Shown here: piece by piece, positions 3,231-3,340 of the stretch
Position numbering within the stretch: position 1 is the first letter of the stretch
Layout: each line of letters opens with the position of its first letter
Virus record (IMG/VR): IMGVR_UViG_2526164664_000018
Source: a virus
Lineage: Duplodnaviria; Heunggongvirae; Uroviricota; Caudoviricetes
DNA length: 5,262 bases
Reading direction: 5' to 3' (one strand)
The notes under the pieces: model-generated
What the model was told of the DNA's origin: nothing
The model's input: only the letters and a program-made list of their open reading frames with translations
Databases searched by the model: none
Position numbers and translations under genes: made by a program

Positions 3231-3239
3231 ATCCCCGAG

Positions 3240-3331
3240 CCTTTCAGAAAGTTGAGCCTGAGAACTGTCGTATATGGTGGCGACCATCTCGGGGCGGCTT
3301 TTCTGTGAGACAGGCTCAATTTTCTGAAAGG
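3240..3331 (+). promoter_or_regulatory. Long-range inverted repeat (21-bp arms, 50-nt spacer) overlapping the RBS of the downstream Rha gene; candidate RNA regulatory hairpin or RNase III site
   Basis: Left arm CCTTTCAGAAAGTTGAGCCTG (3240-3260); right arm CAGGCTCAATTTTCTGAAAGG (3311-3331). Every position pairs when folded as RNA (20 Watson-Crick pairs plus one G-U). The right arm contains the likely SD AAGG (3328-3331), 9 nt before ATG 3341. Confidence 0.5.
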
Positions 3332-3340
3332 TAAGACGCT

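Follow-up and report, generated by a model that had tools for sequence, protein, structure and literature searches.

We analysed a 5,262-nucleotide (nt) stretch of Caudoviricetes DNA from IMG/VR record IMGVR_UViG_2526164664_000018 (the window). It corresponds to the late region of a lambdoid prophage in decay and shares 99.6%–99.96% identity with the E. coli O103 phage Lys8385Vzw. The window carries a rha gene whose product is assigned to PHROG 518 (Rha-like regulator), matches the Pfam families Phage_pRha (E = 4.6e-26) and ORF11CD3 (E = 6.9e-24), and is annotated as a Rha family regulator in Lys8385Vzw (100% identical). An in-frame TAA (3332–3334) stands before the rha ATG at 3341; hence, Rha has no upstream in-frame start. 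Directly before this gene lies a long inverted repeat that had been singled out earlier, from the letters of the window, as a possible RNA stem covering the ribosome-binding site. Comparison with homologous sequences indicates that the arms of this repeat are one helix of a structured mRNA leader of ~125 nt (3209–3331), and that the leader represents a previously uncatalogued, widespread, double-pseudoknotted RNA family.

The two arms (3240–3260, CCTTTCAGAAAGTTGAGCCTG; 3311–3331, CAGGCTCAATTTTCTGAAAGG) are 21 nt long, lie 50 nt apart and are 95% complementary as DNA. Their single DNA mismatch corresponds to G3251–U3320 in plus-strand RNA, giving 20 Watson-Crick pairs and one G-U pair, just as the original prediction had described. 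A repeat scan showed that they are the sole inverted repeat of such quality in the window (all others ≤88% complementary). The Shine-Dalgarno (SD) sequence of rha, AAGG (3328–3331), is located inside the 3′ arm, 9 nt 5′ of the ATG, and pairs with CCUU (3240–3243); its probability of being unpaired in the window is 0.001, in agreement with the sequestration by the helix that had been proposed. Folding of the plus strand of 3192–3360, a check recommended with the prediction, gave −57.2 kcal/mol (z = −3.25), with none of 200 dinucleotide shuffles as stable and with the arms paired in both the minimum free energy (MFE) structure and the centroid. The minus strand of this segment gave z = −1.96.

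Approximately 135 distinct homologous leaders were compared overall, from 80 IMG/VR loci anchored on Rha homologs (set 1), 75 species-representative genome loci (set 2), and 80 loci from a protein-independent DNA-pattern scan (set 3). Placed side by side, the upstream sequences have arms that differ between classes while complementarity is kept. When the upstream regions were aligned with MAFFT alone (A3 and A4), insertions and deletions in the arms were misplaced, and RNAalifold recovered just P3 and P4 from these alignments (helices are named in Table 1); we therefore switched to a covariance model seeded from five colinear sequences. The resulting alignments were A7 (76 distinct rows) and A8 (the pattern-scan set). 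Both were fitted to the model, which favours structure, and their pairing values are accordingly given with controls, over which the margin was very large. Model matches were found in 76 of the 100 sources in sets 1 and 2 and in 76/80 of the pattern set, on the strand of the gene and ending on its start codon; those of sets 1 and 2 span E. coli to Xenorhabdus, Providencia, Gilliamella, Erwinia, Yersinia, and Halomonas. The minus strand yielded weak matches, as would any palindromic structure.

Table 1. Helices of the leader and other features of the window
Feature	Coordinates	Strand	Description
Holin	864–1079
Lysozyme	1084–1617
Second, diverged leader copy	1749–1893	+	Before ant (KilAC-domain antirepressor), start 1891
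ant gene, disrupted	start 1891
Rz	2680–3164
Rz1	2917–3102
Upstream terminator-like hairpin and T-run	3168–3191	+	Stem 3168–3174/3181–3187, loop TTAATC; just 3′ of the Rz stop
P0 hairpin	3209–3223	+	GCGC 3209–3212/GCGC 3220–3223, loop AUCUCAC 3213–3219
PK2, 5′ side	3214–3219	+	P0 loop UCUCAC; partner GUGAGA 3305–3310
PK1, 5′ side (a)	3233–3239	+	CCCCGAG; partner CUCGGGG 3288–3294
P1/P2, 5′ arm (b)	3240–3260	+	Anti-SD CCUUU 3240–3244; 21 pairs with 3311–3331
P3, 5′ strand (c)	3261–3270	+	3261–3264/3301–3304 and 3267–3270/3295–3298, 2x2 internal loop
P4 hairpin	3275–3286	+	UGGU 3275–3278/ACCA 3283–3286, loop GGCG
PK1, 3′ side (a′)	3288–3294	+	CUCGGGG; G3292–G3294 conserved 88%–93%
P3, 3′ strand (c′)	3295–3304	+
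PK2, 3′ side	3305–3310	+	GUGAGA; 6-nt bulge between P3 and P2 in the nested fold
P1/P2, 3′ arm (b′)	3311–3331	+	Ends in SD AAGG 3328–3331
rha	3341–3892	+	183 amino acids; Phage_pRha and ORF11CD3 domains
TonB-like lipoprotein	4223–4564
HNH gene	from 4939

Pairing was retained throughout the nested helices. In A7, 93.6% of their alignment cells were paired (71.9% when shuffled), both sides had changed in 36 of 37 pairs, and the covariation score was 0.563, compared with 0.188 for shuffled and ≤0.081 for slid partners; in A8, 92.5% of cells were paired (76.4% shuffled) and the score was 0.414 (0.158 shuffled). At every one of the 21 P1/P2 pairs, both sides had changed in some A7 sequences, with variants running from GAGCCUG/CAGGCUC to GACCCUUG/CAAGGUUC and GACCUCUG/CAGAGGUC. 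P0 was paired in 99% of cells with both-side changes in all four pairs in A7 (GCGC/GCGC to GCTC/GAGC, and a 5-bp form, GCGCA/TGCGC), P3 in 98%–99% with changes in 7/8 pairs in A7 (replicated in A8), and P4 in ~80% with changes in 4/4 pairs (UGGU/ACCA to GCU/AGC and UGAU/AUCA). The search for covariation in relatives thus bore out the prediction, as the arm helix is conserved with compensatory changes. Moreover, the P2, P3, and P4 columns held 83 G-U cells versus 8 A-C cells, which indicates that it is the plus-strand RNA that folds, rather than the DNA or the antisense strand. Across all helices there were 79 A-C cells, 68 of them in three lower-P1 columns, where a recurrent C-A mismatch is found in 40 of 76 rows and is absent from the window. 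Judging from these sequence patterns, the helices are maintained by selection as RNA on the mRNA strand. The 3′ strand of the leader (3288–3331) is almost fully engaged (42 of 44 nt paired, in the order a′, c′, bulge, b′), and near-invariant positions are G3237, A3238, G3292–3294, A3261, G3262, U3300, and G3307. The P0 region of the window (3208–3230) can also be read as an 11-nt direct repeat, CGCGCAT(C/A)TCA, in 2.1 copies; a natural variant (locus L005, with the leader just 5′ of a Rha start at 839) has one repeat unit and is without both the P0 hairpin and PK2.

Two long-range pairings, PK1 and PK2, complete the leader. The first is the 7-bp pairing that the original prediction had reported as crossing the long stem and as permitting alternative folds. 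It is present and covaries, with its 3′ side at 3288–3294, one position off the 3289–3295 given at the time; a competing role appears unlikely, as it has no nucleotides in common with the long stem, is joined to P1 and P3 by linkers of 0–2 nt, and occurs together with PK2, a second conserved long-range pairing that the original prediction had missed. PK1 is a helix of 6–9 bp in ~60 of 65 distinct combinations and is built from many sequences (5′ sides include CGAGAG, CACAGAG, CGUCGA, CCAAAGA, CCACCGA, and GCAUAGA). Because its register shifts between classes, we used a register-free comparison of each leader's own partners with cross-pairs. A helix of ≥6 bp was formed in 90% of leaders by own partners versus 13% by cross-pairs, and mean duplex energies were −9.5 and −4.6 kcal/mol, respectively.

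PK2 pairs the P0 loop with the bulge between P3 and P2, again with no nucleotides common to P1 or P3. An own loop-bulge helix of ≥5 bp was present in 90% of 51 distinct combinations, compared with 41% when loops and bulges were mismatched, and 34 distinct loop-side helices were found (e.g., UCACAC/GUGUGA, CCGCA/UGCGG, UUCACA/UGUGAA, CUCACC/GGUGAG, UUCCGC/GCGGAA, and CGCCC/GGGCG). In fixed columns, PK2 was paired in 80.8% (A7) and 88.6% (A8) of cells (A8 controls: 77.8% shuffled, ≤51% slid), with compensatory changes in 6/6 and 5/6 pairs, respectively. As these columns are unpaired in the covariance model, the PK2 test is independent of the alignment procedure. P0 and PK2 together have canonical H-type geometry, with a 1-nt loop (A3213) across the 6-bp stem and no nucleotide between 3219 and 3220.

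The energetics and spacing of these pairings bear on how they could coexist. The nested state is ~20 kcal/mol more stable than any PK1-based nested state (−57 versus −36 kcal/mol), which makes a balanced two-state switch unlikely, and PK1 is already part of the MFE structure of a nascent transcript ending at 3294. Since segments a, b, and c follow one another without linkers, coexistence would need P3 and PK1 to be folded back alongside P1/P2, and the lengths are compatible with such side-by-side packing (17–19 bp for P3 plus PK1, 21 bp for P1/P2). On this geometric reasoning, PK1 is probably a pseudoknot of a single compact, closed fold, not a competitor of the long stem.

From the predicted fold we propose, with moderate confidence, that the leader is a translational lock on rha and related regulator genes. 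In every leader the SD is predicted to be paired (median probability of being unpaired 0.23, 75 leaders). The 3′ strand would pair segment by segment: a′ would join a to form PK1, c′ would join c to form P3, the bulge would meet the P0 loop in PK2, and b′ would pair with b in P1/P2, where the anti-SD CCUUU meets the SD AAAGG. The helices would thereby close into a paperclip-like bundle in which P1/P2 (21 bp) lies alongside PK1 and P3, with or without PK2 (17–23 bp). The occurrence of PK1 in the nascent MFE structure suggests an ordered, co-transcriptional zipping of the 3′ strand with SD burial as its last step; each new 3′ segment would meet a pre-formed partner, so that the SD would be buried upon transcription. 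A potentially harmful regulator could in this way be kept poorly translated from an abundant late transcript, the leader serving as a second layer of insulation behind the upstream terminator. Release would have to be brought about actively, for instance by an endonuclease that removes the 5′ arm or by a factor acting in trans.

Transcripts that begin within the leader would escape such a lock, and this was considered in the form of an internal promoter (an IS10-type scheme, with P0 as promoter spacer). That candidate was rejected: no conserved sigma-70-like motif showed a positional peak between −140 and −10 in 149 leaders, and no promoter-like site was found in window positions 2900–4000. 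With no conserved promoter between the terminator and the AUG, every mRNA would carry the complete leader. A terminator-like hairpin with a T-run was found ≤80 nt 5′ of P0 in 124/141 distinct leaders, compared with 36/600 random windows. In the window, the terminator scan listed this hairpin on the minus strand; the T-run is 3′ of the hairpin on the plus strand. Two further candidates were set aside. A conserved upstream open reading frame (ORF) that opens the stem is not supported, as an SD-preceded start occurs in 69/135 leaders with inconsistent frames and stops; the window itself holds an ATG-started 17-codon ORF (3274–3327) inside the leader. Nor is the leader an intrinsic terminator or attenuator, given that P1 is followed by UAAGACGCUAUG and not by a U-run, and that the sole terminator-like site is the separate upstream hairpin.

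Several points weigh against a tight lock of this kind. In about one-third of leaders, nearest-neighbour folding leaves the SD roughly half unpaired (P ~0.5); the start codon itself is for the most part accessible (median unpaired probability 0.59, 75 leaders). The lock may be leaky by design, given the C-A mismatch in lower P1 in 40/76 rows, and Rha is reportedly made late in infection, an observation attributed to Henthorn and Friedman (1995), so that repression would not be absolute. When PK1 is counted in fixed columns, pairing is poor (38%–62%), with register shifts of ≤2 nt between classes. Moreover, we infer translational repression from structure alone and the coexistence of P1, PK1, and PK2 from geometry.

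The leader is not confined to the window or to rha. The 108-nt region that contains the arms matches 150 phage records, including Stx1a- and Stx2a-converting phages and phages of Salmonella, Klebsiella, and Enterobacter, and a match of 87% identity in E. coli DH10B lies directly before rha of phi80, the gene that gave the Rha family its name. Genes downstream of the leader encode Rha with ORF11CD3, Rha with ANT, KilA-N (with or without P63C), P22_AR_N, HNH_3 with AP2, or T5orf172/MUG113, which is essentially the same gene set as the domain-shuffled phage regulators of Iyer, Koonin and Aravind (2002; cited in PMC8951638). The gene upstream is most commonly the Rz spanin (38/78 cases), and sometimes an endolysin, Q-like, or tail gene. 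The leader is a portable cassette placed before rha and other shuffled-domain regulators in the late operons of lambdoid prophages.

Some phages carry the leader twice. The window holds a second copy, on the basis of a covariance-model match that ends on the ATG of ant (36.1 bits, E = 3.8e-7); it has P0 at ~1757–1773, P1 at ~1789–1807/1863–1882, a 7-bp PK1 (CCAAAGA 1781–1787/TCTTTGG 1838–1844), and a PK2 (CGCAC 1763–1767/GTGCG 1858–1862, scored as a 6-bp helix), and the ORFs 3′ of it carry an ANT domain. Part of this copy also appears in the repeat scan as an inverted repeat (1760–1787/1838–1865). In phi80, a second, shorter copy without P4 (L001 5562–5683; 64 bits) precedes a 242-amino-acid protein (PHROG 17079, function not known) between rha and the terminase genes. 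Enterobacterial-class leaders with Rha were also present on three contigs labelled as a Bacillota metagenome-assembled genome (MAG), a Collinsella MAG, and Chryseobacterium sp. (L106, L116, and L128), which are probably mis-binned or contaminating enterobacterial phage.

Searches of known RNAs returned little. Over window positions 3200–3340, Rfam 15 gave only mir-703 (19.5 bits, gathering score 88) and the serC leader (16.5 bits, gathering score 35), and nothing over the leader in nine other representatives, including P22 and phi80. The leader is also not among the RNAs of a 2025 review of phage small RNAs (PMC12197685), and a sequence-string search of the literature found no paper besides PMC13397905. 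The latter describes P22F, an 89-nt plus-strand RNA that is one of ten P22 small RNAs in P22-infected Salmonella, has a "hairpin-heavy" predicted fold and "no known function," reaches 926–2054 reads per million (RPM), and also occurs in vesicles (Naaz et al. 2026, PMC13397905). P22F is the P22 homolog of the leader: it runs on the same strand, beginning midway along the P1 5′ arm and ending shortly after the SD, with its 3′ end 6 nt before the rha AUG. RNA of the homologous region thus accumulates in vivo, in keeping with the proposed lock. SD sequestration, covariation, pseudoknots, family spread, and gene associations are not part of its description in that paper. Another RNA in the same data, P22G, lies 3′ of P22 rha, just before orf25 (PMC13397905). 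P22 rha itself (NC_002371, L159 1076–1681) is annotated as the 201-amino-acid ORF201, starting from a GTG inside the leader (P4 region); the conserved structure and the SD indicate that the real start is ATG 1145, 69 nt downstream, for a product of ~178 amino acids.

A further possibility, which we regard as tentative, is that the leader is a new class of portable double-pseudoknotted translational switch, a closed paperclip RNA that silences domain-shuffled regulators (Rha, KilA-N, Ant, P22_AR_N, and others) and is opened by a specific trigger. Candidates for such a trigger would be, for example, P22F-type processed fragments acting in trans on other leader copies, or a host factor with levels set by IHF or RNase III.

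RNase III could also gate expression more directly, by cutting the P1/P2 duplex (with or without P3) so that the anti-SD strand is detached and Rha is turned on, or so that the SD is severed and the mRNA inactivated. That RNase III controls phage leaders is well known from lambda N and cIII and from T7 early mRNAs. The window offers 21 uninterrupted pairs with a coaxial P3, and the 5′ end of P22F falls inside the P1 5′ arm (with a and the anti-SD removed), so that the leader is processed, or at the least trimmed, in vivo. The original prediction had called the stem a classic RNase III substrate, but that argument does not extend to the family, in which P1 is uninterrupted in just 2/135 distinct leaders (median longest run 9 bp, with 17–19 of 21 positions paired). 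Furthermore, the ends of P22F are not staggered by 2 nt, its 3′ end lying ~13–15 nt past the partner of its 5′ end, and formation of PK1 and PK2 would place the helix within a compact fold and not leave it a free rod. We consider such a gate unlikely.

Less probable again is a regulated switch or operator in which the double pseudoknot binds a common host or phage factor, or an RNA, that times the opening or the stabilisation of the lock. The leader precedes unrelated genes, so any trans-acting factor would have to be common to these contexts and could not be the downstream protein. The fold is more elaborate than hiding an SD needs, several of its positions are near-invariant, and several phages carry two copies. 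P22F keeps the 3′ arm, and its free tail is complementary to the anti-SD found in leaders that have not been processed; by analogy with IsrK in Gifsy-1, leader fragments might act as anti-antisense RNAs, which is one form that such a switch could take. Henthorn and Friedman (1995) are said to have placed rha in the late operon, to have found it deregulated in IHF-deficient hosts, and to have noted IHF consensus sites near start sites. No IHF consensus (≤1 mismatch) was found within the leaders or arms of the window, phi80, and P22, which speaks against this reading, even if phi80 rha expression reportedly depends on host IHF status (attributed to Friedman, 1985 and 1995; summarised in PMC4936722). 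Moreover, conserved unpaired nucleotides such as would line the ligand pocket of a riboswitch are few, and the ~20 kcal/mol by which the nested state exceeds PK1-only folds leaves no balanced equilibrium to tip.

A third possibility, that the leader is a processing or stability module (a barrier in the late transcript to RNase E or 3′ exonucleases, or a small-RNA precursor) and that SD pairing is incidental, appears quite improbable. P22F is abundant at the levels given above and is present in vesicles, and the leader is intergenic in a polycistronic operon and adjoins a terminator hairpin. Punctuation of a transcript, however, needs neither the constant end at a start codon, nor an SD within the stem, nor the conserved anti-SD CCUUU. 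A DNA-level element, in the form of the miniature inverted-repeat transposable element (MITE)-like insertion that had been suggested as an alternative, a cruciform, or paired sites for a protein such as IHF, can practically be dismissed: the inverted repeat does exist in DNA and the minus strand does match the model weakly, but the dispersed-copy check of the 108-nt region found 1039 places in 916/5426 E. coli genomes (median 1 and maximum 4 per positive genome), every copy examined stands directly before a start codon in the orientation of the gene, the arms differ and yet stay complementary, four further nested or crossing helices covary, and the tolerance of G-U but not of A-C pairs is explained solely by single-stranded plus-strand RNA. 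A MITE was rejected specifically because the arms are not copies of one consensus, have evolved by compensation, and occur in few copies per genome, and a chance repeat is ruled out by the repeat scan, the genome counts, and the covariation.

The remainder of the window shows signs of decay. Relative to Lys8385Vzw, ~109 bp are missing from Rz, with the junction at ~2768–2775 in an 8-bp overlap of the BLAST alignment, and the gene is broken into overlapping ORFs (2680–2913 and 2715–3164) while Rz1 is intact; this prophage looks defective for lysis as a result of the damage to Rz. The ant ORF (1891–2585) carries a premature stop at 2065–2067, and its Lys8385Vzw counterpart is intact (231 amino acids). 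Directly 3′ of the rha stop, an 11-nt unit (CGCCGTATCGT) is perfectly repeated in tandem (2.8 copies, 3903–3933). A weak Rfam match to the enterohemorrhagic E. coli small RNA Esr41 (159–236, minus strand; 29.6 bits, E = 0.012, gathering score 102) overlaps a terminator-like hairpin 3′ of the first partial ORF.

Whether a resident prophage remains silent is determined by regulators of the Rha, Ant, and KilA-N type. When deregulated, Rha reportedly blocks phage growth in IHF-deficient hosts, a phenotype said to date from 1985 with its mechanism unexplained, and a conserved RNA lock would offer a concrete, mutable target for this IHF/Rha problem. The leader is found in phi80, P22, and many Stx1- and Stx2-converting phages, and the class seen in the window alone is present in ~17% of the complete E. 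coli genomes. Few structured RNA families are known from temperate phages, and the leader adds a sizeable one that has two covarying pseudoknots; it also helps to correct gene starts (P22 rha/ORF201) and gives P22F a structural context. If the leader is indeed a triggered switch, antirepressor synthesis, prophage cross-induction, and Shiga-toxin phage activation would all be coupled to the trigger.

Several known systems are close to the leader in some respects. Davis, Simons and Kleckner (1985) are said to have described fold-back inhibition of transposase mRNA in IS10/Tn10. As in IS10, an upstream segment present in read-through transcripts pairs with the ribosome-binding site of a potentially harmful gene, in addition to a block to incoming transcription. 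In contrast to IS10, where a promoter between the arms lets native transcripts escape, the leader has no conserved promoter-like motif and all transcripts would be locked; its fold, with two pseudoknots, is also far more elaborate. The leaders of lambda cIII, lambda N, and T7 0.3/1.1 resemble it in having a long, irregular helix that contains the ribosome-binding site or controls it, but there is no sequence or Rfam relation to these RNase III-modulated leaders, and the helix of the family described here is interrupted and placed within pseudoknots. In the rpsO/S15 and alpha operon/S4 translational operators of E. coli ribosomal-protein mRNAs, too, the ribosome-binding region is part of a pseudoknot. 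There, a specific repressor protein stabilises the pseudoknot, and the 30S subunit is trapped; for the leader, autoregulation is ruled out as a general mechanism, since the proteins encoded 3′ of it differ between copies. Finally, translation of antirepressor-type genes is likewise turned off by pairing at the ribosome-binding site in P22 sar-ant, P1/P7 c4-ant, and Gifsy-1 IsrK-anrP (PMC12197685; PMC13397905), although Rfam models for C4 and isrK, as well as those for twister, pistol, and hatchet, had no match to the leader. Sar, c4, and IsrK act in trans as separate or processed RNAs, whereas the antisense segments of the leader lie in cis; like these segments, c4 and IsrK lie upstream of their targets and share their coding strand.

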